Position numbers and translations under genes: made by a program
Shown: positions 26,232 to 63,704 of the stretch, in pieces
Layout: the number at the start of each line of letters is the position of its first letter
How positions within the stretch are numbered: position 1 is the first letter of the stretch
Notes under the pieces: model-generated
What the model was told of the DNA's origin: nothing
Database searches by the model: none
What the model saw: only the letters and a program-made list of their open reading frames with translations
Source: Squalus acanthias
Taxonomy: Eukaryota
Reading direction: 5' to 3'
Assembly: GCA_030390025.1 (NCBI GenBank)
Contig: JASTWF010000337.1
Location: 1 to 64,000, forward strand
Length of the DNA stretch: 64,000 nt

Positions 26232-28757
26232 TATATTCTCTATAACATACACATGAGCTGCTATTCTCTATAATATACACAGGGGCTGCTATTCCCTATA
26301 ATATACACAGGGGCTGCTATTCCCTATAATATACACAGGGGCTGCTATTCCCTATAATATACACAGGGGCTGCTATTCCCTATAATATACACAGGGCCTG
26401 CTATTCTCTATAATATACACAGGGCCTGCTATTCCCTATAATATACACAGAGGCTGCTATTCTCTATAATATACACAGGGGCTGCTATTCTCTATAATAT
26501 ACACAGGGCCTGCTATTCCCTATAATATACACAGGGGCTGCTATTCTATATAATATACACAGGGCCTGCTATTCTCTATAATATACACAGGGGCTGCTAT
26601 TCTCTATAATATACACAGGGGCTGCTATTCTCTATAATATACACAGGGGCTGCTATTCTCTATAATATACACAGGGGCTGCTATTCTCTATAATATACAC
26701 AGGGGCTGCTATTCTCTATAATATACACAGGGCCTGCTATTCTCTATAATATACACAGGGGCTGCTATTCTCTATAATATACACAGGGCCTGCTATTCCC
26801 TATAATATACACAGGGGCTGCTATTCTATATAATATACACAGGGGCTGCTATTCTCTATAATATACACAGGGGCTGCTATTCTCTATAATATACACAGGG
26901 CCTGCTATTCCCTATAATATACACAGGGGCTGCTATTCTCTATAATATACACAGGGGCTGCTATTCTCTATAATATACACAGGGCCTGCTATTCCCTATA
27001 ATATACACAGGGGCTGCTATTCTATATAATATACACAGGGCCTGCTATTCCCTATAATATACACAGGGGCTGCTATTCTCTATAATATACACAGGGCCTG
27101 CTATTCTCTATAATATACACAGGGCCTGCTATTCTCTATAATATACACAGGGGCTGCTATTCTCTATAATATACACAGGGGCTGCTATTCTCTATAATAT
27201 ACACAGGGCCTGCTATTCTCTATAATATACACAGGGGCTGCTATTCTCTATAATATACACAGGGGCTGCTATTCCCTATAATATACACAGGGGCTGCTAT
27301 TCTATATAATATACACAGGGGCTGCTATTCTATATAATATACACAGGGGCTGCTATTCTCTATAATATACACAGGGGCTGCTATTCTCTATAATATACAC
27401 AGGGGCTGCTATTCTATATAATATGCACAGGGGCTGCTATTCTATATAATATACACAGGGCCTGCTATTCCCTATAATATACACAGGGGCTGCTATTCTC
27501 TATAATATACACAGGGGCTGCTATTCCCTATAATATACACAGGGCCTGCTATTCTCTATAATATACACAGAGGCTGCTATACTCTATAATATACACAGGG
27601 GCTGCTATTCTCTATAATATACACAGGGGCTGCTATTCTCTATAATATACACAGGGGCTGCTATTCTCTATAATATACACAGGGGCTGCTATTCTCTATA
27701 ATATACACAGGGGCTGCTATTCTCTATAATATACACAGGGGCTGCTATTCTCTATAATATACACAGGGGCTGCTATTCTCTATAATATACACAGGGCCTG
27801 CTATTCTCTATAATATACACAGGGGCTGCTATTCTCTATAATATACACAGGGCCTGCTATTCCCTATAATATACACAGGGGCTGCTATTCTATATAATAT
27901 ACACAGGGGCTGCTATTCTCTATAATATACACAGGGGCTGCTATTCTCTATAATATACACAGGGCCTGCTATTCCCTATAATATACACAGGGGCTGCTAT
28001 TCTCTATAATATACACAGGGGCTGCTATTCTCTATAATATACACAGGGCCTGCTATTCCCTATAATATACACAGGGGCTGCTATTCTATATAATATACAC
28101 AGGGCCTGCTATTCCCTATAATATACACAGGGGCTGCTATTCTCTATAATATACACAGGGCCTGCTATTCTCTATAATATACACAGGGCCTGCTATTCTC
28201 TATAATATACACAGGGGCTGCTATTCTCTATAATATACACAGGGGCTGCTATTCTCTATAATATACACAGGGCCTGCTATTCTCTATAATATACACAGGG
28301 GCTGCTATTCTCTATAATATACACAGGGGCTGCTATTCCCTATAATATACACAGGGGCTGCTATTCTATATAATATACACAGGGGCTGCTATTCTATATA
28401 ATATACACAGGGGCTGCTATTCTCTATAATATACACAGGGGCTGCTATTCTCTATAATATACACAGGGGCTGCTATTCTATATAATATGCACAGGGGCTG
28501 CTATTCTATATAATATACACAGGGCCTGCTATTCCCTATAATATACACAGGGGCTGCTATTCTCTATAATATACACAGGGGCTGCTATTCCCTATAATAT
28601 ACACAGGGCCTGCTATTCTCTATAATATACACAGAGGCTGCTATACTCTATAATATACACAGGGGCTGCTATTCTCTATAATATACACAGGGGCTGCTAT
28701 TCTCTATAATATACACAGGGGCTGCTATTCTCTATAATATACACAGGGGCTGCTATT
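26232..28757. repeat. Continuation of the 28-bp satellite (homogeneous block with GGGCCTG variant)
   Basis: Same monomer as 1-20760. The rare variant AGAGGCTGCTATACTC recurs 1064 bp (38 monomers) apart. Confidence 0.97.
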
Positions 28758-38247: not shown

Positions 38248-39846
38248 GTGAGGGGGGATTGTGAGGGGGGATTGTGAGAGGGGATTGTGAGGGGGGGATG
38301 TGAGGGGGGATTTTGAGGGGGGATTGTGAGGGGGGGATGTGAGGGGGGATTGTGAGGGGGGATTGTGAGAGGGCATTGTGAGGGGGTGGATTGTGAGGGG
38401 GGGGATTGTGAGGGGGGGATTGTGAGAGGGCATTGTGAGGGGGTGGATTGTGAGGGGGGGGATTGTGAGGGGGGGGATTGTGAGGGGGGGATTGTGAGGG
38501 GGGGGATTGTGAGGGGGGGATTGTGAGGGGGGGGATGTGAGGGGGGATTGTGAGGGGGGGATGTGAGGGGGGGATTGTGAGGGGGGATTGTGAGGGGGGA
38601 TTGTGAGGAGGGGATTGTGAGGGGGGGATTGTGAGGGGGGATTGTGAGGGGGGATTGTGAGGGGGGGATTGTGAGGGGGGATGTGAGGGGGGATTGTGAG
38701 GGGGGGATGTGAGGGGGGGATTGTGAGGGGGGGATTGTGAGGGGGGGATGTGAGGGGGGATTGTGAGGGGGGGATGTGAGGGGGGGGATTGTGAGGGGGG
38801 ATTGTGAGGGGGGATTGTGAGGGGGGATTGTGAGGGGGGGGATTGTGAGGGGGGGATTGTGAGGGGGGGATTGTGAGGGGGGATTGTGAGGGGGGATTGT
38901 GAGGGGGGATTGTGAGGGGGGATTGTGAGGGGGGATTGTGAGGGGGGATTGTGAGGGGGGATTGTGAGGGGGGGATTGTGAGGGGGGATTGTGAGGGGGG
39001 ATTGTGAGGGGGGATTGTGAGGGGGGATTGTGAGGGGGGATTGTGAGGGGGGATTGTGAGGGGGGATTGTGAGGGGGGATTGTGAGGGGGGGATTGTGAG
39101 GGGGGATTGTGAGGGGGGATTGTGAGGGGGGGATTGTGAGGGGGGGATGTGAGGGGGGATTGTGAGGGGGGATTGTGAGGGGGGATTGTGAGAGGGGGGA
39201 TTGTGAGGGGGGGATTGTGAGGGGGGATGTGAGGGGGGGATTGTGAGGGGGGATGTGAGGGGGGGATTGTGAGGGGGGGATGTGAGGGGGATTGTGAGGG
39301 GGGGATTGTGAGGGGGGGATTGTGAGGGGGGGATGTGAGGGGGGATTGTGAGGGGGGGATTGTGAGGGGGGGATTGTGAGGGGGGGATGTGAGGGGGGAT
39401 TGTGAGGGGGGATTGTGAGGGGGGATTGTGAGGGGGGATTGTGAGGGGGGATTGTGAGGGGGGATTGTGAGGGGGATTTTGAGGGGGGATTTTGAGGGGG
39501 GGATTGTGAGGGGGGGATTGTGAGGGGGGATGTGAGGGGGGATTGTGAGGGGGGGATGTGAGGGGGGGATTGTGAGGGGGGATTGTGAGGGGGGGATTGT
39601 GAGGGGGGGATTGTGAGGGGGGGATTGTGAGGGGGGGATGTGAGGGGGGATTGTGAGGGGGGATTGTGAGGGGGGATTGTGAGGGGGGGATTGTGAGGGG
39701 GGATTGTGAGGGGGGATTGTGAGGGGGGATTGTGAGGGGGGATTGTGAGGGGGGATTGTGAGGGGGGATGTGAGGGGGGATTGTGAGGGGGGGATTGTGA
39801 GGGGGGGGATTGTGAGAGGGGATTGTGAGGGGGGGATGTGAGGGGA
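38248..39846. repeat. G-rich minisatellite, unit about ATTGTGA(G)6-8 (12-15 bp)
   Basis: Directly visible; strongly strand-asymmetric. Confidence 0.97.
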
Positions 39847-42624: not shown

Positions 42625-45450
42625 CCGAGTTCTGTGGGATTAACCCCGAGAGTTCTGTGGGATTAACCCCGAGAGTTCTGTGGGATTAACCCCGAGAGTT
42701 CTGTGGGATTAACCCCGAGTGTTCTGTGGGATTAACCCCGAGAGTTCTGTGGGATTAACCACACGAGTTCTGTGGGATTAACCCCGAGTGTTCTGTGGGA
42801 TTAACCCCAAGTGTTCTGTGGGATTAACCCCGAGAGTTCTGTGGGATTAACCCCGAGAGTTCTGTGGGATTAACCCCGAGAGTTCTGTGGGATTAACCCC
42901 GAGTGTTCTGTGGGATTAACCCCGAGAGTTCTGTGGGATTAACCCCGAGTGTTCTGTGGGATTAACCCCGAGTGTTCTGTGGGATTAACCCCGAGAGTTC
43001 TGTGGGATTAACCCCGAGAGTTCTGTGGGATTAACCCCGAGTGTTCTGTGGGATTAACCCCGAGAGTTCTGTGGGATTAACCCCAAGTGTTCTGTGGGAT
43101 TAACCCCGAGAGTTCTGTGGGATTAACCCCGAGTGTTCTGTGGGATTAACCCCGAGAGTTCTGTGGGATTAACCCCGAGTGTTCTGTGGGATTAACCCCG
43201 AGAGTTCTGTGGGATTAACCCCGAGAGTTCTGTGGGATTAACCCCGAGAGTTCTGTGGGATTAACCCCGAGTGTTCTGTGGGATTAACCCCGCGTGTTCT
43301 GTGGGATTAACCCCAAGTGTTCTGTGGGATTAACCCCGAGAGTTCTGTGGGATTAACCCCGAGAGTTCTGTGGGATTAACCCCGAGAGTTCTGTGGGATT
43401 AACCCCGAGTGTTCTGTGGGATTAACCTCGAGTGTTCTGTGAGATTAACCCCGAGTGTTCTGTGGGATTAACCTCGAGTGTTCTGTGAGATTAACCACAC
43501 GAGTTCTGTGGGATTAGCCACATGAGTTCTGTGGGATTAAACCCGAGAGTTCTGTGGGATTAAACCCGAGAGTTCTGTGGGATTAAACCCGAGTGTTCTG
43601 TGGGATTAACCCCGAGTGTTCTGTGGGATTAACCTCGAGTGTTCTGTGGGATTAACCCCGAGTGTTCTGTGGGATTAACCTCGAGTGTTCTGTGAGATTA
43701 ACCCCGAGTGTTCTGTGGGATTAACCTCGAGTGTTCTGTGAGATTAACCCCGAGTGTTCTGTGGGATTAACCTCGAGTGTTCTGTGGGATTAACCCCGAG
43801 TGTTCTGTGGGATTAACCTCGAGTGTTCTGTGAGATTAACCCCGAGTGTTCTGTGGGATTAACCTCGAGTGTTCTGTGAGATTAACCACACGAGTTCTGT
43901 GGGATTAGCCACATGAGTTCTGTGGGATTAAACCCGAGAGTTCTGTGGGATTAACCCCGAGTGTTCTGTGGGATTAACCCCGAGTGTTCTGTGGGATTAA
44001 CCTCGAGTGTTCTGTGAGATTAACCCCGAGTGTTCTGTGGGATTAACCTCGAGTGTTCTGTGAGATTAACCACACGAGTTCTGTGGGATTAGCCACATGA
44101 GTTCTGTGGGATTAAACCCGAGAGTTCTGTGGGATTAAACCCGAGAGTTCTGTGGGATTAAACCCGAGTGTTCTGTGGGATTAACCCCGAGAGTTCTGTG
44201 GGATTAACCCCGAGTGTTCTGTGGGATTAACCCCGAGTGTTCTGTGGGATTAACCCCGAGTGTTCTGTGGGATTAACCCCGAGTGTTCTGTGGGATTAAC
44301 CCCGAGAGTTCTGTGGGATTAACCCCGAGTGTTCTTTGGGATTAACCCCGAGAGTTCTGTGGGATTAACCCCGAGTGTTCTGTGGGTTTACCCCGAGTGT
44401 TCTGTGGGATTAACCCCGAGTGTTCTGTGGGTTTACCCCGAGAGTTCTGTGGGATTAACCCCGAGAGTTCTGTGGGATTAACCCCGAGTGTTCTGTGCGA
44501 TTAACCCCGAGAGTTCTGTGGGATTAACCCCGAGAGTTCTGTGGGATTAACCCCGAGTGTTCTGTGGGATTAACCCCGAGAGTTCTGTGGGATTAACCCC
44601 GAGTGTTCTGTGGGATTAACCCCGAGTGTTCTGTGGGATTAACCCCGAGTGTTCTGTGGGATTAACCCCGAGAGTTCTGTGGGATTAACCCCGAGAGTTC
44701 TGTGGGATTAACCCCGAGAGTTCTGTGGGATTAACCCCGAGTGTTCTGTGGGATTAACCCCGAGAGTTCTGTGGGATTAACCCCGAGTGTTCTGTGGGAT
44801 TAACCCCGAGAGTTCTGTGGGATTAACCCCGAGTGTTCTGTGGGATTAACCCCGAGAGTTCTGTGGGATTAACCCCGAGTGTTCTGTGGGATTAACCCCC
44901 AGTGTTCTGTGGGATTAACCCCGAGAGTTCTGTGGGATTAACCCCGAGAGTTCTGTGGGATTAACCCCGAGAGTTCAGTGGGATTAACCCCGAGAGTTCT
45001 GTGGGATTAACCCCGAGAGTTCTGTGGGATTAACCCCGAGTGTTCTGTGGGATTAACCCCGAGTGTTCTGTGCGATTAACCCCGAGTGTTCTGTGGGATT
45101 AACCCCGAGAGTTCTGTGGGATTAACCCCGAGTGTTCTGTGGGATTAACCCCGAGAGTTCTGTGGGATTAACCCCGAGTGTTCTGTGGGATTAACCCCGA
45201 GAGTTCTGTGGGATTAACCCCGAGTGTTCTGTGGGATTAACCCCGAGTGTTCTGTGGGATTAACCCCGAGTGTTCTGTGGGATTAACCCCGAGAGTTCTG
45301 TGGGATTAACCCCGAGAGTTCTGTGGGATTAACCCCGAGTGTTCTGTGGGATTAACCCCGAGTGTTCTGTGGGATTAACCTCGAGTGTTCTGTGGAATTA
45401 ACCCCGAGTGTTCTGTGGAATTAACCCCGAGTGTTCTGTGGAATTAACCC
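42625..45450. repeat. 23-bp minisatellite GATTAACCCCGAGWGTTCTGTGG (about 120 copies)
   Basis: 23-nt periodicity is visible (GATTAAC at 42661, 42684...). Confidence 0.98.
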
Positions 45451-51784: not shown

Positions 51785-52740
51785 GTGAGGACAGGAGGAG
51801 GGCCACCTTCAATTGCCCATTTGACCAACGCTGAGGAGGCTGTACTCAAAATCATCGGAGGTGCTAAGGATCTGGAAGTGAGGGACGGTCAGACGGGCGC
51901 CGCAGAGCAAGCTGGTGACAGAATAGATTTGCATCTCTCTCATTGACATTGCATGAGTGACTGATATGGCATCTGATGCTCATACAGATTGAGTTATGAT
52001 CATCTGTACAATTCCATGTGCATGCTACGTTAATATCACGTGTCTAACTCATGCCTTTACTCCCCCATAGGACCATCGACAGCCCCCCTCCCCACTGTCC
52101 AGGAGGAAGAGCAGGAAGACTCCTCAGAGGAAGCTGCAACCTCTGAGGGCGCAGCGTCAGCAGAATTAAGCGCACCCAGCACCAGCGCAGACCTCGGTGG
52201 GACCTTCGGGAGATAGAGTAGTGTTGTGACCTGGTGTATCACAGCTCACAAGTGAGCATCAGCAGATGGTGGAGACAGGGACAGCAGTGCTCAGCTGCAT
52301 GTCGACCCTGTGCCTCCGGGTCCATCCAGAAGGAGAGCGATGATTGAACTCCAGGAACAGGTGCAGGAGTCTCTGGCAGATTTTGTCTCCAGGGTCACTG
52401 CGAGTGTGGAGAGGATGGAGGAGTCCATGTCTAACATGAGCATTGCCTTTGTGGAGGCATTGGCGCATGAATGCATCACCATGGAAAGGATGGCAACCTC
52501 CGTGGAAAGGCTGGCTATGGTCATGGAGGAAATAAGTCGCCAGAGTCAGGAAAACATGGTGAATATTCGGAATAGACTGACATCTCTGGAGGAGCGATGG
52601 GCAGCTATTAAGCAGGGAGACCAGAGCTTCATGGAAGTCCTTTTGAGGAGGACTGCCAGTGCAGATACGGCTCCTTATGACCCCCCTGATGTGCAGCAAG
52701 GTGCTGTCCAGCCACTTGCTGGCACTGAAGTGGGGCTGAC
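51785..52740 (+). pseudogene. Harbinger-associated Myb/SANT-like protein gene remnant, 5' part (two exons)
   Basis: 51785-51914 reads VRTGGGPPSIAHLTNAEEAVLKIIG. GT at 51915, CTAAC branch point and AG at 52070. An acidic low-complexity segment and a coiled coil follow (ORF 52310-52753). Confidence 0.65.
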
Positions 52741-53366
52741 TGTAGAAATATGAACTGGTGAATTGTGCCTTTAGAAAATGGTCGAGGACTTGCAAAAACT
52801 GCAGCCAGTGAGATCTCAAATAAACAAAACCTTGAAGCTGGGGGCCGAGGGCTGCTCAAATAACATAGTTAACAGGCCTGCAAAAGATGACAAGCTTGCA
52901 GGATGATCGAGTCTACGACAATAATTAACTCAAGATAAGGGTGACAATCTAGTCTAACGGTTGAGCAGTCGCAAACCACATAATAAGGGACCTCTGGAAT
53001 TCCCTAACCGACCAAGGATACCGATTGGCTAAGGATGGACACATCTCAGACAAAATGGCCGAATCTGCACACGGCACGCCTTGACCATTCTGTTGTGATG
53101 ATCACAGAAGCTGTGAGCTAACTGTCAACTGATCAACTTTCAAACGGGTAATATTGTTTTAAGCTAGCACACATGGGGAGTGAGCCCTGTGTCATTTTCC
53201 TTGTAAGTTATTCAAACAACTTGTTAACCAATAAAGTACTAAATGTATGCAACTTACTGAGTGTGACCGACATTTGACACTCTGAACTAAGAACCATAAC
53301 TGTTGAACTGTTGTTGAGCTGACTACTTATTACTAGCTCAATAGATACAGTGAATTTAGGACAACA
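52741..53366 (+). repeat. 5' LTR (626 bp; lacks about 203 bp present in the 3' LTR)
   Basis: TGTAGAAATATG...GGACAACA; AATAAA at 53230; direct repeat of 62569-63389. Confidence 0.95.
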
Positions 53367-53369
53367 AAC

Positions 53370-53387
53370 TGGCGACTCTGGCGGGAC
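53370..53387 (+). promoter_or_regulatory. Primer binding site, probably tRNA-Arg(UCU)
   Basis: TGGCGACTCTGGCGGGAC lies 3 nt after the LTR. It is complementary (17/18) to the 3' end ...GTCCCACCAGAGTCGCCA of vertebrate tRNA-Arg-TCT as recalled from memory. Confidence 0.78.
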
Positions 53388-53543
53388 TTTTGACTTGAGA
53401 TGTGGGACTTTTCAAGAAGGATAAATTAAAAGTGTCAAACGGAACGAGTTGGAATCTTAAAAATAAGATGCTACGTTACGGGATAACAATGGCGAGTAAT
53501 AAAGGGGCGACCTCCCAGAGTTGCGAAGAACAGTATAATAAAT

Positions 53544-55828
53544 TAATTTTTGTGGTTATAGTTTCTAAGGTCTCTGTTGTGTAGCGGGGAGTGCTAGTAA
53601 ACAAGGGCCCTTGAGTATATCATTTAATTGTAGTGTAATTAGTGGCATTGATTTGATTTAATTTAATTTAAATTAATTAAATGGTAAGTCATGGCAGCAC
53701 AGCTCGGCCCCGTGGTATGCTCCTCCTGCACTATGTGGGAAATCAGGGACACTTCCTGTGTCCCTGACGACCATGTGTGCGGGAAGTGTATCCAGCTGCA
53801 GCTACTGGCAGACCGCATTGTGGCGCTGGAGCTGCGAATGGATACATAATGGAGCATTCGCGATGCTGAGGATGTCATGGATAGCACATTTAACCGCAGG
53901 TAAAGGCTGCACAGGCAGGAAGGGAATGGGTGACCACCAGGCAGAGTAGAAGGCGCAGGCAGGTAGTGCAGGGGTCCCCTGTGGCCATCCCCCTCTCAAA
54001 CAGATATACCACTTTGGATATTGTTGAGGGAGATGGCTTATCGGGGGAAGGCAGCAGCAACCAACTTCCTGGCACCATGGGGGGTTCTGCTGCACAGGAC
54101 GGAAGGAAAAAGAGCAGGAGAGCTATAATGATAAGGGAATTCTATTGTAAGGGGAATAGATAGGCATTTCTGCGGCCGCAAACGAGACTCCAGGATGGTG
54201 TGTTACCTCCCTGGTGCAAGGGTCAAGGACGTCTCGGAGCGGCTACAGAACATTTTGGAGGGGGAGGACGAACAGCCAGTTGTCGTGGTGCATATAGGTA
54301 CCAACGATATAGGTAAAAACCGGGATGAGGGCCTAAAAGCTGAATATATGGAGTTAGGAGGTAAATAAAAAAATAGGACCCCAAAGGTAGTAATCTCAAG
54401 ATTGCTACCAGTGCCATATGCAAGTCAGAGTAGAAATAGAAGGATATTTCAGATGAATACATGGCTACAGGAATGGTGCAAGGGGGAGGGATTCAAATTC
54501 CTGGGACATTGGAACCGGTTCTGGGGCAGGTGGGACCAGTACAAACTGGACGGTTTGCACCTGGGCAGGACCGGGACTGATGTCCTAGGAGGAGTGTTTG
54601 CTAGTGCTGTTGGGGAGGGTTTAAACTAAAATGGCAGGGGGTTGGGAACCTGTGCAGGGAGACAGAGGAAAGGGAAGCAAGGATAGAAGCAAAAGACAGG
54701 AAGGAGAAAAGCAAAAGTGGCAGTCAGAGAAATCAAGGGTGTAAATCAAACATGACCACAGTAAATAATAATTCTAAAAGGTCTAAGAGTGTTAAAAAAA
54801 CAAGCCTGAAGGCTTTGGGTCTAAATGCAAGGAACATTCGTAATAAGGTGGATGAATTAGCTGCGCAAATAGATGTAAACGGATATGATATAATTGAGAT
54901 TACGGAGACATGGCTCCAAGGTGACCAAGGATGGGAATTCAACATCCAGGGGTATTCAATATTCAGGAAAGCCAGGCAAAAAGGAAAAGGAGGTGGGGTA
55001 GCATTGCTGGTTAAAGAGGAGATTAACACAATAGTAAGGAAGGATATTAGCTCTGATGATGTGGAATCTGTATGGGTAGAGCTGAGAAATACCAAGGGGC
55101 AGAAAATGTTAGTGGGAGTTGTATACAGACCCCCAAACAGTAATGCTGAGGTTGGGGATGGCATTAAATGGGAAATTAGAGATGCGTGCAATAAGGGCAC
55201 AGCAGTTATCATGGGTGACTTTAATCTACATATAGATTGGGCTAACCAAATTAGTAACAATACTGTGGAGGAGGAATTCCTGGAGTGTATACGGGATGGT
55301 TTCCTGGACCAATATGTTGAGGAACCAACTAGAGATCAGGCCATCTTAGACTAGGTATTATGTAATGAGAAAGGATTAATTAGCAATCTTGTGCGAGGCC
55401 CCTTGGGGAGGAGCGATCATAATATGATAGAATTCTTCATTAAGATGGAGAGTGAAGTAGTTGACTCAGAGACTAGGGTCCTGAATTTAAATAAAGGAAA
55501 CTACGATGGTATGAGGCATGAGTTGGCTAGGATGGATTGGGAAACATTACTTAAAGGGTTGATGGTGGATAGGCAATGGCAAACATTTAAAGATCGCATG
55601 GATGAACTACAGAATTTGTTCATCCCTGTTTGGCATTAAAATAAAACAAAAAAGGTGACTCAACCGTGGCTAACAAGGGAAATTAGGGATAGCATAAGAT
55701 CCAAGGAGAGGACATATAAATTGGCCAGAAAAAGCAGTAAACCTGAGGATTGGGAGCAGTTTAGGATTCAGCAAAGGAGGACAGAGGGATTAATTAAGAG
55801 GGGGAAAATAGAGTATGAGACTAAGCTT
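53544..55828 (+). mobile_element. CR1 5' half (5' UTR, ORF1, APE) occupying the gag/pro position of the provirus
   Basis: Same subfamily as 20765-26231. ORF1 ATG at 53691; APE ORF 54752-55354. It ends abruptly and joins retroviral RT sequence. Confidence 0.92.
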
Positions 55829-55829
55829 C

Positions 55830-58260
55830 CTCCTGGAACAAGGCATACTTAGACCTATCGCGTCTACCAATAACTCACCCATTTGGCCAGTCCAAAAGCC
55901 TGATAAATCATAGCGCATGACTATAGACTACCGAGTATTAAATAAAGTCATGCCTTCAGCAGCGCCCACGGTCATCACTGCACCAGAGGCTGCCCTCAAT
56001 TTTTCCCCAACCGCAAAATTCTTCACAGTATTGGATATTAGTAATGGATTTTGGTCCATACCGTTGGCCAAGGAATGTCAGTATAAATTTGCATTCACTC
56101 ATAAAGGACAACAATACACTTGGACTTGTTTGCCCCAAGGTTTCCATAATAGCCCCTCGATATTCTCGAATATGACAACAAATGGGTTAAAGGGATTTTC
56201 TCAACCCTCAGCCCTTGTTCAGTATGTAGATGATATCCTACTCCAAACAGACACCCTTGAGAAACACGAGATCCTGTTACAAGAACTATTAGTAACTCTG
56301 TACAGATTAGGGGTTAAAATAAACCCGAAAAAGGCACAGATTGGAAAACCAAAAGTGCAATATTTAGGGATGCAAGTAACCCAGGGGGCACGGGAGTTGA
56401 CCGAAGATAGAAAGAAGTCTGCCGCCACCTTACCCCACCCCCACAGACGTCAAATCCCTCAGGTCCTTTTTAGGGATTACAGGGTACTGCCGGGATCACA
56501 TTGAGGACTACTCTGTGGTCACCAAACCCTTGTATAATCTACTATAAAAGGGGGTGCTATGGGAATGGACCCAAGAACATGCGAACTCGTTCGGTAAATT
56601 AAAGTCAGCATTGATCCAAGCCCCTGCACTACGAAACCCAGACATGTCTTCGAGCTTTTATCTGGAAACGGCCTCGAGCAAAGATGGTCTGTCAGCGGTA
56701 TTGCTGCAGGAACACTCTGCAAAGCTCCAACCTGTTGGTTACGCAGGGACAATATAGAATGAAAAAGGTTAAAGCCCATGTAAAAACCACACCATTAGGA
56801 AATCAATTAGCAGATGAAGCAGCAAAACAAGGAGCTATTGATGGTTACCTATGGGACCCTCTGCAGGGAAAGGAAGGCACACTAACAGAAACCCTTCGGC
56901 TGTCAAGGTAACCTCCAAGACAGTAATAGATCTAAGGGAGAGCCAAAGCTCTGACCCGGATCTGAACAATATCCAATTAGGAAAGCCTTATCCCGAACCA
57001 TATAGTCAATATAGAACCGGTTTAATTTTAAATCAAGGGGTGGTGCTAAAGAACGGAAGATATGTGGTACCGGAGGTGGATAGACCCGAAATAATTTACC
57101 AGTTCCATGATGTGGGAGGACACCAGGGGATAGATAGAACTACTGCCAAGATTAGGGATGTATGCTGGTGGCCAGAAATACAATCAGATGTAGAGAAATA
57201 CGTCAAGAACTGTCTGATTTTTGCTCAAAATAACCCTGGGAAATACAAGAATCAGGCTTTAATGGGACGCACTCGACAGGGCAAGAGCCCCGGGCCCAAC
57301 TTCAGATAGATTATATAGGGCCACTGCTCACCTGCCCAGGAGGAAAGAAGTACATATTGGTAATAGTAGATGTATTTTCTAAATGGATTGAGGCCTTCCC
57401 AACCAATAACAATTCAGCTGCCACTACCGTCAAAATCCTAATGGAAGAAGTGTTCTCCCGATGGGGATTACCCGAAAGCATCGACTCAGATCAAGGGACC
57501 CATTTTACTGGGCAGGTCATGAGATCGGTCATGCAGTTGGCTGGGGTAAAACAGGATTTTCACATTTCATACCATCCAGAGTCCAGTGGGATAGTAGAAA
57601 GAATGAAGAGGACCCTAAAAACTATGATGAGGAAATTGGTCCAACAAAATCATACCTCCTGGCATAGGGTTGCTCCCTTCTGCATTAATGGCCATCCGGA
57701 ACACGGTGGTAGCATCCACCGGCTGCTCACCACATGAGTTCATGACAGGAAGGATTCTGAAAGGTATCGAGGCATTTATGGGTAGGGACCTAAGTGAAAT
57801 CCAGAAGACATCCTTGTCATCTGAAAAATACATGACTGATTTGGTGAAGTATTTGGAAGCGGCAAAAATGACCGCAGCCGTAAAAATGGGAAAAAGGCAT
57901 CAGAAAAGTAAAGCCTATTTTGACGGGAAAACCCACCCATGGGAAGTCAAGATAGGTGACCAGGTCATGGTTAAGGTCCAAAGGGAGGGAACATTCCTGA
58001 GCCCAAAATATGCAGGGCCCTTTAGAGTAATGGAAAAAGCTAGTCCCTCCGTATATAAGATAATGGACGGACAAGGAAAGTAAAAAAGGCACCACATCCA
58101 TCAGTTAAAAACTTTCGGGAAAGTGGATAGTTTTCACCAGTACCATGTACAACTGGATGCTTCAGACCCCCAGGGATTGGATGAAGGAAATGATGGTTCA
58201 GATGACGGTAACAAATCAGATAGGTCGATCAGGACTCAACAGGTCTGGTGGACGGAGTAG
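55830..58260 (+). pseudogene. pol: Proviral pol: RT, RNase-H-like tether, RNase H C-terminus, integrase (HHCC, DDE, GPY/F)
   Basis: RT: LLEQGILRP..NSPIWPVQKPD, LDISNGFWSIPL, YTWTCLPQGFHNSP, YVDD. Tether: FYLETASSKDGLSAVLLQ. RNase H: KVKAH..GNQLADEAAK. Integrase: HDVGGHQG..WWP..C, QIDYIGPL, SDQGTHF, SSGIVER, PKYAGPF. Stops and frameshifts throughout. Confidence 0.93.
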
Positions 58261-58517
58261 GGAACCTGTTCCTAAATGATGAACGGGACCCAAATGAATC
58301 TCCTCCTAACTCACCAATAAGGGAGACAGCGAGTACCGGGTCAGCAAATTTCATGGCTGCCACTCACCGACTCCTTGGTTGGGCACACCTACTTGGAATG
58401 GATCGCTCCTCAAAGACCCCTCGTTTACAAAGGGTGACTGATATATAAGAAATAATTCATAAACTGTACATAAGAGCAGCTAGTATCTTGATCATGTTTG
58501 TATGTGTTTAGAAATGA

Positions 58518-61500
58518 ATGCCGGAAATAATTCCAGTCGAAACCTCAGACGACTATCGCAATCGTTATCAAGAATGGAGTGAGGAGCTGTTCTGGACCCT
58601 TTTTCCATCTGGGACTTTTGATGTTCGGAACATTCTTTATCCTATGGATCATCCATCAAATATGAAAGAATAGGGGACACCAACAGAACAACGAAGAAGG
58701 ACAAGAGGAAATAGAAACATAGAAACATAGAAAATAGGTACAGGAGTAGACCATTCGGTCCTTCGAGCCTGCACCGCCATTCAATGCGTTCATGGCAGAA
58801 CATGCTAACTCAGTACCCCATTCCTGCTTTCTCGCCATACCCCTTGATCCCCCTAGTTGTGAGTGTTATATCTAACTCCCTTTTGAATATATTTAGCGAA
58901 CTGGCCTCAACAACCTTCTGTGGAAGAGAATTCCACAGATTCACCACTCTCTGGGTGAAGAAGTTCCTCCTCATCTCAGTCTTAAATGGCTTCCCCTTTA
59001 TCCTTAGACTGTGACCCCTGGTTCTAGTTTTCCCTCACATTGGAAACATTCTGCCCGCATCTAATTTGTCTAAACCAGTCAGGATTTTAAACGTCTCTAT
59101 AAGATCCCCCCTCATTCTTCTGAACTCCAGAGGATACAAGTTCAGTTGATCCAGTCTTTCTTGATATGTCAGTCTGGCCATCCCAGGAATCAATCTAGTG
59201 AACCTTCGTTGCACTCCCTCAATAGCAAGAATGTCCTTCCTCAAGTTAGGAGACCAAAACTGCACACAATACTCCAGGTGTGGCCTCACCAAGGCCCTGT
59301 ACAACTGTAGCATCACCTCCCTACTCCTGTACTCAATTCCCCTTGCTATGAAGGCCATCATGCCATTTGCTTTCTTGACTGCCTGCTGCACTTGCCTTCC
59401 CACCTTCAGTGACTGATGTGCCATGACGCCCAGGTCTCGTTGCACCTCCCCTTTCCCTAATCTGCCACCACTCAGGTAATAGTCTGCCTCCCTATTTTTA
59501 CCACCAAAGTGGATAACCTCACATTTATCCACATTGTACTTCATCTGCCATACATTTGCCCATTCACCCAACCTGTCCAAGTCACTCTGTAGCCTCCTAG
59601 TATCCTCCTCATTGTTCACACTGCCTCCCAATTTAGTGTTATCCGCAAATTTGGAGATATTACAATTAATCCCTTCATCCAAATCATTAATATATAATGT
59701 AAACAGCTGGGGCCCCAGCACCGAACCCTGTGGTACCCCGCTGGTCACTGCCTGCCATTCTGAAAAGTACCCATTTACTCCTACTCTTTGTTTCCTGTGT
59801 GCCAACCAGTTCTCAATCCACGTCAACACATTACCCCCAATCCCATGTGCTTTAACTTTGCACACCAATCTCTTGTGTGGGACCTTGTCGAAGGCCTTCT
59901 GAAAGTCCAAATACACCACATCTACTGGTTCCCCCCCATCCACCCTATTGGAAACATCCTCAAAAAATTCCAGAAGATTTGTCAAGCATGATTTCCCTAT
60001 CACAAATCCATGCTGACTTGGACCTATCATGTCGCCACTTTCCAAATGGTCTGTTATGACATCTTTAATAATTGATTCCATCATTTTACCCACCACCGAT
60101 GTCAGGCTGACTGGTCTATAATTCCCTGCTTTCTCCCTCCCTCCTTTTTTAAAAAGAGGGGTTACATTAGCCACCCTCCACTCCTTCGGAACTCATCCAG
60201 AGTCTAAGGAATGTTGGAAAATGATCGTCAATGCATCCACTATTTCCAAGGCCACCTCCTTAAGTACTCTGGGATGCAGACCATCAGGCCCTGGGGATTT
60301 ATCAGCCTTCAGTCCCATCAATTTCCCCAACACCTTTTCCCGACTGATAAGGATTTCCCTCAGCTCCTCCCTCTTACCAGATCCTTTGATCTCTTTTATT
60401 TCCGGAAGGTTGTTTGTGTCCTCCACAGTAAACACCGAACCAAAATACTTGTTCAATTGATCTGCCATTTCTTTGTTCCCCATTATGACTTCCCCTGTTT
60501 CTGACTGCAGGGGACCTACGTTTGTTTTTACTAACCTCTTTCTTTTTACATATTTATAGAAGCTTTTGCAGTCCGTTTTAATGTTCTCCGCAAGCTTCCT
60601 TTCATATTTTATTTTCCCTGCCCTAATCAAACCCTTCGTCCTCCTCTGCTGAGTTTTAAAGTTCTCCCAGTCCCCAGGTTTGCTGCTACTTCTGGCCAAT
60701 TTGTATGCCACTTCCTTGCTTTTAATACTATCCCTGATTTCCCTTGTTAGCCATGGTTGAGCCACCTTCCCTTTTTTATTTTTACGCCAGACAGGGATGT
60801 ACAATAGAGGCGGTTCGACAATGACGTGTTATATAATATTAACTTGTGTACTTATGATATGTGTAGAATTAAACAGGGTACTGGGTGAACAGAAGGTGAT
60901 TCTCACCTCCGGGGACACAGACTATAATAGCGCGAATTGTATCGCAGAGTTTAGTCACTGGAAGGCCCCTACCCACGGAAACCATGAGTGTAGCTGCAGT
61001 GGGATGGCTAGGACATGCCACCAGACTAGCTATGCGGGGAACCTGACTAGGGTGTGTGTGACTTGCAGCCATACTAATCAAGGTAAACGATCTATAGTCT
61101 GGCAGGCAAAGGCCGAGAAGGATGGAATATACACAGTATCGTCAGGAGCCAATCCACTAAGTAGAGCAAATTGTACCATCGAGGGCAGAAAGGTATGTTG
61201 TCAGATGGATCCACAGGCAAAGAGTTTACACTTATTCATGGGATGTAGTAGTAATAGGGCGGTGGGAAACCTGACTTCTAATGCAAGGGTCTCCCAGAGA
61301 CCTAATTGCTCCTGCGAAAGTCAAGTGAAGATCATAGTTCATCAGCTCCCTTCCACACCCACCCCAGGACCAACTCCCACCCCTATGACCACTTCCCCAT
61401 TCCCACCCACTCTGGCTCCTCCGACAGAATGTCTCCAAGAAACGTTCGGACCAAAGGGAGGAGTTGTATTCAGAACCACTGGCGAGATTGTGTATGATAA

Positions 61501-62451
61501 TGTACAGTATGCTTTGGTACCCATCGTTTTGAATATGTCAGATATCCAGCTGCCCGCCTGGTGTCCTACTAAACTGCAATAAATTCACCGAGACTTGATT
61601 AAGGGGTTGCTCCAACAGGAAATAGGCAATAATACTGGGGGGAACCGTACCCAGGAAGGAGCAAGTGAGAGCAAGAAGGAATGAAGTTAGCGGAGTTTAA
61701 GAATATAGGGACAATACAGGAAGGAATATGGATGAGGTTTGATAATCTGTTACCATATGCTGTCGAACTAGATGGTACCCTAGTCGGTACCACCCTAAAT
61801 CAATGTCAACAAACTGACCAAACGGTAATATGCCCCGATAAGATTTATCCAACTAACGCGGCAAGATGTGGGTTCAATGGGATCAAAACCCTAAATCGTA
61901 CGCTGGTAGTGGAATCTACCACTGGAAGAATCGAGAGAACCGGCTATCAGGGAAATAGAACTTACTGTTTTACCACAACCAAGGTCAGCTATCACTATGG
62001 AAACAGGGAATGTCCCATAGAAACCCCGACTTTCTGTCTGCACCCTTTAATACCGATGAGATTGGGTAATGAAGAAATTATCGATATCGAGCGAAGAGAA
62101 ACGGTTCAGATTAATGTGGCTGACGGCCTGAAAGGAAACTTGGAGAATTACTTTGGAAAATATGACATCAGTATCCAATTAGAGAAGGAACATTTGATTA
62201 GGATCAAGCATCAGCTTGAACTGATACATCAGACTTACATACGAGTGGAACAGAACACACAGGAAAATGGCAAGGACATAAAGAGCATCAAGATAGACAC
62301 ATGGTGGGATGAAATATGGAATTGGGGTACAAATGTCAATATACACCCATGGATTAGAATATTCTCACACATTACAGTTATTCTAATTACTGTAATATTC
62401 CTGTGTCTGTGTGTCACCTGGAGAAGTATGATGAGATTGGAAAAAGATTGA
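58518..62451 (+). pseudogene. env: Proviral env, F-fusion-glycoprotein-like; split by a CR1 and internally deleted
   Basis: ATG at 58518 follows a splice-acceptor-like TGTTTAG. Removing the CR1 restores the frame to the hydrophobic YIILTCVLMICV. A Cys-rich domain, PT-rich linker, RARR (61668-61679), Cys-rich segment, heptad region, WWDEIWNW and TM (IFSHITVILITVIFLCLCVTW) follow. Confidence 0.82.
58716..60802 (-). mobile_element. Young 5'-truncated CR1 LINE inserted in env
   Basis: ORFs 60193-60804 and 59035-60174, (CATAGAAA)n tail, and AATAGA duplicated at 58710-58715 and 60803-60808. Confidence 0.95.
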
Positions 62452-62557
62452 AGGGGCGACTCGGAATGATGGAGACGGGGCAAGTGATGAAGATGGAAGA
62501 CCGGAGGAGGCTACTAACTACGAAAGGTGATCAATATAATCGATGATTAAAATGATC

Positions 62558-62568
62558 AAAGGGAGGAG
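62558..62568 (+). promoter_or_regulatory. Polypurine tract
   Basis: AAAGGGAGGAG immediately precedes the TG of the 3' LTR. Confidence 0.88.
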
Positions 62569-63389
62569 TGTAGAAATATGAACTGGTGCCTTTAGAAAAT
62601 GGTCGAGGACTGCGAAAACTGCAGCCAGTGAGATCTCAAATAAACAAAACCTTGAAGCTGGGGGCCTAGGGCTGCTCAAATAACAGAGTTAACAGGCCTG
62701 CAAGAGATGACAAGCTTGCAGGATGATCGAGTCTACAACAATAATTAACTCAAGATAAGGGTGACAATCTAGTCTAACGGTTGAGCAGTCGCAAACCACA
62801 TAATAAGGGACCTCTGGAATTCCCTAACCGACCAAGGATACCGATTGGCTAAGGATGAACACATCTCAGACAAAATGGCCGAATCTGCACACGGCACGCC
62901 TTGACCATTCTGTTGTGATGATCACAGAAGCTGTGAGCTAACTGTCAAGAGGTCTCATGACTGATTAGAGCAACCTTGTGCAAACGGTCTTATCGGTGGG
63001 GGGGGGGTGGGGGGGGGGGCACATAGGTAGTAAAAATATCGATATAAAAGAAGGGAGCCAAGAGCTAGTTTAGCAGCGAGAACCTGGGAATCACACTTGA
63101 GAAGGGAGGAGCCACAAGTCTGGGACTTGTTGTAGGACACCAGCGCGAAGGCTGATCAACTTTCAAACGGGTAATATTGTTTCAAGCTAGCACACATGGG
63201 AAGTGAGCCCTGTGTCATTTTCCTTGTAAGTTATTCAAACAACTTGTTAACCAATGAAGTACTGAATGTATGCAACTTACTGAGGCCGACCGACATTTGA
63301 CACTCTGAACTAAGAATCATAATTGTTGAACTGTTGTTGAGCTGACTACTTATTACTAGCTCAATAGATACAGTGAATTCGGGACAATA
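62569..63389 (+). repeat. 3' LTR (821 bp)
   Basis: TGTAGAAATATG...GGACAATA (terminal CA mutated to TA). G-tract near 62998-63019 and TATAAAA at 63043. Confidence 0.95.
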
Positions 63390-63704
63390 CTGACCCATGA
63401 GGGAGGTGTTGGTGGCAGGCAACAAGGAAGTGTGGGCTCCTCTCCAAGCGCTCACACTGCCATGCCACTGCGGAGCCCTTGATCAGAGCCCCACCAGAGT
63501 CCTCACCCAACTGAGATTGGCGTCTCAGCCCCTGCACAGACGCAGGAGTAGCAAACTGTTGCCGAGCCCTCCCAGGATCGCAAACCCAGAGGATGCCCGC
63601 CAAAGGTGTCGAAGCAGCAGCAGCATGAAAGTGAGCAAGGTGCCTCCACATCTGCGGAAGCACCACGTAGAAGCACGCATAAGAGGAAGATAAAGCACAA
63701 ATAG
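63390..63704 (+). pseudogene. Harbinger Myb/SANT-like gene remnant, 3' part
   Basis: In frame with 52310-52740 once the provirus and one TSD copy are removed (GLT-HEGGVGG...). It ends KPRGCPPK...APRRSTHKRKIKHK* and has two internal stops. Confidence 0.6.

Follow-up and report, generated by a model that had tools for sequence, protein, structure and literature searches.

A predicted paramyxovirus F-type envelope on a canonical Pol in an endogenous retrovirus family of Squalus acanthias

Introduction

Retroviral envelope (Env) proteins of the type of the paramyxovirus fusion (F) protein are already known from the lokiretroviruses and the foamy viruses. Lokiretroviruses have the gene order LTR-gag-pol-env-LTR (LTR, long terminal repeat), a dual RNase H and an Env homologous to the F family PF00523, with a basic cleavage site, a fusion peptide, heptad repeats and a transmembrane segment (TM), according to the available text of Wang and Han (2021, PMC7947760), in whose original screen none of 6 chondrichthyan genomes was positive. 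The Env of foamy viruses likewise has a class Ib F-like core (Fernandez et al. 2024, PMC11468914, available text). Here we describe a family of endogenous retroviruses (ERVs) in Squalus acanthias, one copy of which lies in positions 1 to 64,000 of contig JASTWF010000337.1 (assembly GCA_030390025.1, forward strand), a stretch hereafter called the window. The family resembles the lokiretroviruses in its gene order, dual RNase H and Env features, and it adds a canonical Pol, an N-terminal domain and a cartilaginous-fish host to what is known of F-type retroviral Envs. We assign a probability of about 85% to the reading that the window holds a broken env gene that belongs to a multi-copy ERV, the Env of which is predicted to be of the paramyxovirus F type (class Ib) and the Pol of which is canonical rather than lokiretroviral.

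Other described systems share single traits with this family. The snakehead retrovirus (SnRV) and the SnRV-like or clade Huo ERVs are also deep-branching canonical retroviruses of aquatic hosts, with reverse transcriptase (RT) motifs that look similar by eye. Clade Huo includes the elephant-shark CmiERV lineage I, which clusters with SnRV, and the available text of the same reports (PMC4422223, PMC6001957) describes no F-like Env for SnRV-like or CmiERV elements. The Envs of the walleye epsilonretroviruses lack gamma-type hallmarks, according to the accessible part of PMC9967133, and our literature search found no published statement that they resemble F-type proteins. The predicted core fold and the order of its elements are shared with the F proteins of paramyxoviruses and pneumoviruses and with the F-type Envs of errantiviruses and baculoviruses; unlike the family described here, the errantiviruses are Ty3/gypsy elements of invertebrates.

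The Env Is Predicted to Have an F-like Fold

The env gene starts about 620 bp upstream of the stretch singled out in an earlier note on the window, which had proposed, by eye, that the Env ectodomain resembles paramyxovirus F and not the retroviral surface and transmembrane subunits (SU/TM). Both motifs behind that proposal were found on the plus strand. The first, GGVVF...VLNM at 61457-61537, lies in the frame of the open reading frame (ORF) 60761-61582 and had been likened to the N-terminal strand of F2; structural alignments to solved F proteins do begin at the equivalent residues, 212-214 of our model (the GGV strand), which are paired with the first F2 strand (F residues 23-38). The second, WMRF...ARCG at 61729-61872, lies in another frame, that of ORF 61669-62451. 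It contains the Cys-rich F1 motif as proposed, with a true spacing of C-x8-C-P-x3-Y-P-x5-C that differs from the one first given, and C-x8-CP recurred in 6 of 7 Env sequences in a pattern test. This recurrence and the starting point of the structural alignments speak against a chance likeness. Downstream follow the expected heptad (~62179-62295), Trp-rich segment (~62302-62352) and TM (~62353-62421). The gamma-type hallmarks CX6CC and an immunosuppressive-domain (ISD)-like motif, reported earlier as absent, occurred in 0 of the 7 Env sequences by the same kind of test. Between the two motif pieces lie a premature stop (61580-61582) and a deletion of 541 bp, neither of which the earlier note had mentioned.

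The fold was predicted with AlphaFold2 for an unaltered natural relative with an open frame, 59% identical to the 3' piece of the window Env and 41% to its 5' piece, from a 93-row alignment. The mean predicted local distance difference test score (pLDDT) was 65, with values of 77 to 97 over most of residues 201-270 and 371-600. In a Foldseek search of the PDB with this model, all 41 rows listed were F proteins of paramyxoviruses or pneumoviruses, with a best E of 3.6e-10. Alignment to post-fusion Nipah F with VIA-align gave Z 12.2 over 294 residues (root-mean-square deviation, rmsd, 5.8 A), and among 48,161 chains searched, Z>=8 was reached by 10, namely 9 F proteins and the foamy virus Env (8rm0; Z 8.5 over 277 residues, with an rmsd of 5.5 A). 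Matches in BFVD included lispivirus glycoproteins, walleye epsilonretrovirus Envs, mumps F, baculovirus F and feline foamy Env. Two features of class Ib are seen in the family: the predicted model appears to contain a nested domain I-III core formed by both subunits, and undeleted copies carry a basic cleavage site followed by the fusion peptide and first heptad. A match to foamy Env had been named beforehand as grounds for rejecting an F-like fold, which was the wrong test since foamy Env is itself F-like. The proposed F type thus stands, on the predicted structure and on a chain of profiles that reaches Fusion_gly through lokiretrovirus Env; its opposition to retroviral Envs does not, as those of foamy viruses and lokiretroviruses are F-like. 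A first model, from 9 rows and with a pLDDT of 42, was unusable, and its match to the Env of walleye dermal sarcoma virus (WDSV; E 6e-7) was not relied on.

The profile chain was built from an HMMER profile of 9 pieces from the same genome, which recovered 72 relatives; the viral contigs searched yielded none. Matches to Fusion_gly were obtained for 3 of 32 scanned relatives (E 4e-7 to 5e-6), and these 3 proteins agree by eye with lokiretrovirus Envs in the accessible part of the supplement to PMC7947760. A family profile of 43 rows matched lokiretrovirus Env with a probability of 99.2 and E 2.9e-19 over 395 columns, which include both motifs. Of the two Pfam families suggested for checking, the window piece itself reached only Baculo_F, at a sub-threshold E of 0.005, and 7 relatives gave one similar Baculo_F row and otherwise no relevant match. 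Searches by word index for homologs of the window piece and of a full-length relative gave no match.

Several observations weigh against an F-like fold. It was predicted on a relative of 59% identity, with lokiretrovirus Envs included in the alignment, and the N-terminal domain and the fusion peptide and first heptad (residues 275-347) were poorly modelled, with pLDDT <50 over most of their length. Whole-chain TM-scores were low (0.22-0.31), likely because the helical parts were modelled between the pre-fusion and the post-fusion form. Neither the window piece nor the full-length relatives had a direct Pfam or PDB sequence match to F; no significant match to F came from searching PDB sequences with single proteins or with profiles of the family, and in the search with a broad profile human metapneumovirus F appeared at E 0.09, the best match being the TM subunit of HERV-K (E 0.003, heptad-TM part only). 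All three Fusion_gly matches fall under Pfam's cut-off, the peptide after the cleavage site has a hydrophobicity of 0.8-1.5 vs 1.8-2.05 in lokiretroviruses, and the ESM Atlas pointed to class III-type glycoproteins of Monjiviricetes (0.92-0.93, with recognition under its threshold). Together with the poor first model, the missing direct match and the Atlas and HERV-K matches would suit a superficial or artefactual likeness, in which case the Env would be an orthoretroviral SU/TM that has diverged, or else a class III glycoprotein. We find this hard to credit, given the local confidence of the second model, the concordance of four structure searches, the independent sequence chain to Fusion_gly and the absence of CX6CC and ISD motifs.

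Paramyxovirus F proteins were the best structural matches, as they would be if an F gene had been captured as a stand-alone, non-retroviral viral insert. The probability of such a capture is negligible: the family Env is only 9% to 15% identical to F, its gene lies between integrase and the polypurine tract and LTR in many copies, the provirus has an LTR pair and a target duplication, and relatives are spread across sharks, frogs and the coelacanth.

The Env Carries an Additional N-terminal Domain

Compared with lokiretroviruses, the family Env adds an N-terminal region of 100-240 residues with a Pro/Thr stalk, and its fusion peptide is less hydrophobic. Paramyxovirus F has no attached receptor domain. 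The foamy virus Env has a receptor-binding domain (RBD) inserted between the subunits, whereas the extra domain of the family is N-terminal, as in the coronavirus spike (PMC11468914, available text); only ~70 residues separate the start of the family core from the cleavage site, so there is no large inserted RBD. The predicted models of the walleye epsilonretrovirus Envs matched that of the family with E 3e-13 for walleye epidermal hyperplasia virus 1 (WEHV-1) and 2e-11 for WDSV; they differ in their length of about 1,160-1,320 residues, their 12% identity and their separate Pol clade.

From its position and variability, the Cys-rich N-terminal domain is likely a receptor-binding module. A PDB sequence search with this domain gave no match, the Atlas returned weak immunoglobulin (Ig) rows at 0.80-0.82, and the low-confidence model of the domain matched jelly-roll sandwiches at Z ~6. 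It was also noted that the N-terminal domains of five Env relatives (P0135, P0138, P0148, P0166, P0169) vary widely and that some look Ig-like by eye; one of these proteins is named 'Ig-like domain-containing', and one distant relative had a V-set match at E 0.045. Three other relatives (P0164, P0177, P0267) are without the domain, as are the lokiretrovirus Envs.

The Pol Groups with Canonical Retroviruses

In the 3.7-Gb genome, the 3' piece of env gave 147 scored matches (of 8,601 candidates), which fell into tiers of ~92%, ~58% and ~35% identity. Sister copies carry a Gag with a zinc knuckle, a protease, RT, tether and RNase H; the dual RNase H (tether plus RH), present in copy L025, is a feature common to all retroviruses. 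The gag-pol junction has an in-frame stop in 3 of 3 copies, so readthrough would be implied for Pol. Neither this stop nor a zinc knuckle in Gag is known as a feature of foamy viruses.

The closest named RTs, 42% to 52% identical, belong to unnamed elements of frogs, the coelacanth and turtles, and the 'NYNRIN-like' names among the Pol matches are automatic labels. The best PDB match of the family RT was foamy RT (197 bits vs 184 for the murine leukemia virus type). In a 39-row tree of RT and tether, inferred without a foamy RT row and without the long-branch sequence P0037, the family was placed inside the clade of canonical retroviruses with a Shimodaira-Hasegawa-like approximate likelihood ratio test (SH-aLRT) support of 97, apart from the lokiretrovirus clade (100). 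Joining the family with the lokiretroviruses was rejected by the approximately unbiased (AU) test (p=0.00014). Lokiretrovirus RT motifs, with 64 and 34 occurrences in the lokiretrovirus supplement, are absent from this family, and the three RT motifs of the family had 0 occurrences in the part of that supplement searched. The sequence comparisons support an RT that is canonical, deep-branching and aquatic.

A simpler account would be that the family is a lokiretrovirus and that only its host class, the cartilaginous fish, is new. The Envs are homologous, both have a dual RNase H, and the closest named Pols come from frogs, the coelacanth and turtles, where lokiretroviruses occur. It also counts against a canonical placement that a wider 13-row Pol group was allowed as sister to the lokiretroviruses (p=0.057) in the tree without foamy RT. 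We nevertheless regard this account as unlikely, in view of the absent RT motifs, the rejected nesting, the Env tree, which sets the lokiretroviruses apart, the missing N-terminal domain of their Envs and the negative screen of chondrichthyan genomes.

The relationship to SnRV is only plausible on these sequences. The SnRV RT is just 41% identical (250 bits) and no nearer than some other lineages, and no named SnRV Env was found among the family Env matches (profile relatives and BFVD). Grouping of the 13 rows with the SnRV Pol (P0048, taken as such by eye from a sequence comparison) was allowed (p=0.16) yet not recovered, the tree showing a polytomy.

The Env tree places the family within proteins of sharks and rays (SH-aLRT 98), beside those of amphibians, the coelacanth and an eel, with the lokiretroviruses apart, and 11 of the 29 Env relatives looked up by name were chondrichthyan, which makes a shark or ray host likely. 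We also observed annotated clusters of the Env family in Mantella (16), Discoglossus (32) and Bombina (3), many of them full length, which suggests recent expansions in frogs.

A second family in the same genome, represented by L019 (G000:C12) and L042 (G000:C1), encodes a homologous F-type Env that is ~34% identical to the window piece. Its Pol represents a different lineage with an RT identity of 41% to 47% to the window-type Pol, and a single clade of the two was rejected (AU p=0.0005 and 0.007) in tests that left out one poor unrelated RT piece, the partial piece L045 and the long-branch P0037. The occurrence of homologous Envs on two Pol lineages points to env swapping or to a deep shared Env.

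A 541-bp Deletion in env Shared by Many Copies

The deletion, measured against copies L008, L014 and L015, removed ~180 residues, and with them the basic cleavage site, fusion peptide and first heptad. All three are present in undeleted copies and are lacking from the window Env for this reason. It is common to 10 of the 15 closest copies. The deleted junction was found at 16 genomic places and the undeleted flank at 7 exact places, 5 of which were inspected (the flank search gave 22 rows, the 7 undeleted and 15 others that were deleted-junction places). Contigs from 3 of 4 sequencing runs, from three different organisms, span the deleted junction, and the deletion is therefore not private to this assembly. 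None of the runs recorded as RNA contains the stretch. A skip of 60859-61489 in two runs was considered as a splice and rejected, since copies L024 and L030 have a corresponding deletion in the genome.

The similar purine stretches at both ends of the deletion suggest a template jump during reverse transcription. The deleted copies form no single clade in a star-like tree, where one supported pair consists of a deleted copy and an undeleted one. This tree neither shows a single origin of the deletion nor makes one likely.

The frame of the deleted env ends right at the cleavage site and leaves the signal peptide, the N-terminal domain and part of F2, and one might imagine that the host kept this form for a receptor-blocking surface fragment that lacks a TM and is secreted. 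Refrex-1 and suppressyn are such secreted receptor-blocking Env fragments. The deleted form is the commoner one, and its junction is bridged in runs of three organisms. Retention by the host is all the same very unlikely: the 5' piece is marred by stops, frameshifts or large losses in no fewer than 9 of 10 deleted copies, the window copy among them, and no selection on the deleted form was detected, the pN/pS ratio (nonsynonymous to synonymous differences) being 0.70 in frame, not clearly under the off-frame controls (0.83-0.86) or the undeleted copies (0.74).

Proposed Life Cycle and Evolutionary Implications

If the predicted fold is correct, the ancestral Env would have entered the secretory path via its signal peptide, formed trimers and been cleaved at the basic site that undeleted copies retain. 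In a layout that would be spike-like in the terminology of Fernandez et al., the N-terminal domain on its Pro/Thr stalk would likely have bound cells; after the cut, the fusion peptide would insert and the two heptads zip into a six-helix bundle, as in F proteins. Translation would have read through the in-frame stop of gag to produce Pol. The deletion probably arose when reverse transcriptase jumped between two short similar stretches, and copies with a deleted env would likely have spread either intragenomically or with the aid of intact viruses.

No published report of an F-type Env for this lineage was found in a literature search that was largely without subscription papers. None was described in the available text of PMC4977317, PMC11089739, PMC11521997, PMC12583693, PMC8278194, PMC10699275, PMC6001957 and PMC9967133, or in that of the preprints 10.1101/2023.10.26.564294, 10.1101/2024.07.05.601823 and 10.1101/2025.09.25.678357. 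In the accessible part of PMC9040795, Wang and Han preferred independent Env gains for lokiretroviruses and canonical retroviruses, on the ground that the Envs of the two were not similar. The presence of an Env homologous in sequence to that of lokiretroviruses on a canonical Pol, and also on another Pol lineage of this genome, bears directly on whether envelopes were gained once or several times, and the Envs of this family provide sequences for testing the two alternatives. The results also suggest that, among aquatic retroviruses, F-type entry machinery occurs more widely than has been described. We tentatively raise a broader hypothesis, which we think has a smaller chance of being right than wrong: that these ERVs belong to an undescribed canonical group in sharks, rays, amphibians and the coelacanth, with an F-type Env that has a swappable N-terminal receptor domain, and that the F-type fusogen is maybe the ancestral retroviral envelope. 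In this view, F-type Envs may be ancestral because lokiretroviruses, foamy viruses, walleye epsilonretroviruses and at least 2 further Pol lineages would all carry them. If so, the gamma/beta-type SU/TM would be a later replacement of the F type, rather than the F type being a one-off capture by lokiretroviruses.

Organization of the Provirus

The env-bearing provirus (52741-63389) has the layout LTR-pol-env-LTR and is framed by the LTR pair and a 5-bp target duplication (table 1). Of 619 aligned columns of the two LTRs, 18 (2.9%) differ, which loosely dates the insertion to ~66 million years at a shark rate of 2.2e-10 per site per year, as assumed by Han 2015 (PMC4422223, available text), or to ~7 million years at a mammalian rate. 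No match to the gag or protease of the family was found anywhere in the window, and the fragment of a long interspersed element (LINE) in their place contains an endonuclease-like ORF (54605-55354). In pol, ~700 bp are missing at 56744; domain matches were obtained for RVT_1 (E 2e-31), RNase_H (6e-5), Integrase_H2C2 (2e-19) and rve (7e-18). The window copy is unable to make Gag, Pol or a fusogenic Env, and nothing at this locus, an ordinary dead provirus, points to a function.

Table 1. Coordinates of the provirus and its parts in the window
Feature	Position	Strand	Remarks
Target-site duplication, left copy	52736-52740	+	5 bp; right copy at 63390-63394
5' LTR	52741-53366	+	TG...CA; middle ~200 bp shorter than in the 3' LTR
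Putative primer-binding site and leader start	53370-53547	+	Begins TGG, at the expected place; matches the same region in full copies L032-L034
LINE fragment, CR1-type by eye	53548-55828	+	Occupies the gag/protease place of other copies
Broken pol (RT, tether, RNase H, integrase)	55829-58440	+	Frameshifts and stops; 3' end approximate
51-codon ORF directly upstream of env	58518-58673	+	In the env frame in uninterrupted copies
LINE insertion, CR1-type by eye, between pol and env	58716-60802	-	6-bp target duplication
env start and likely signal peptide	60821-60886	+	ATG at 60821; hydrophobic N-terminus in relatives too
Cys-rich N-terminal domain, ~155 residues, predicted beta-rich	60887-61351	+	Equivalent residues with pLDDT mostly <50
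Pro/Thr-rich linker	61352-61429	+	In relatives too
F2-like segment, putative first long beta strand of an F-type core	61430-61582	+	Motif 61457-61537; premature stop 61580-61582
Junction of the 541-bp deletion	61667-61671	+	Short repeated purine stretch at both ends; frame shifted
Remaining F1-like beta domains and Cys-rich segment (61729-61872)	61669-62178	+	Equivalent residues with pLDDT 80-97 to ~600
Second heptad, Trp-rich membrane-proximal segment, TM and tail	62179-62451	+	Tail shortened by a frameshift near 62440
Polypurine tract	62558-62568	+	Expected place before the 3' LTR
3' LTR	62569-63389	+	Matched to the 5' LTR

The terminal stop of the 51-codon ORF upstream of env is kept in the window and in all 11 other copies in which a match was obtained, and the ORF possibly encodes an accessory peptide or a read-through leader. 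The LINE subfamily inserted between pol and env was also found, at 97% identity, in copy L025 (2218-4305), at a different site in the provirus. Outside the provirus, the window contains a satellite with a 28-bp unit at 1-20758 (742 copies) and 26234-28757 (90 copies), as well as arrays with units of 13 bp (38248-39845) and 23 bp (42629-45450).

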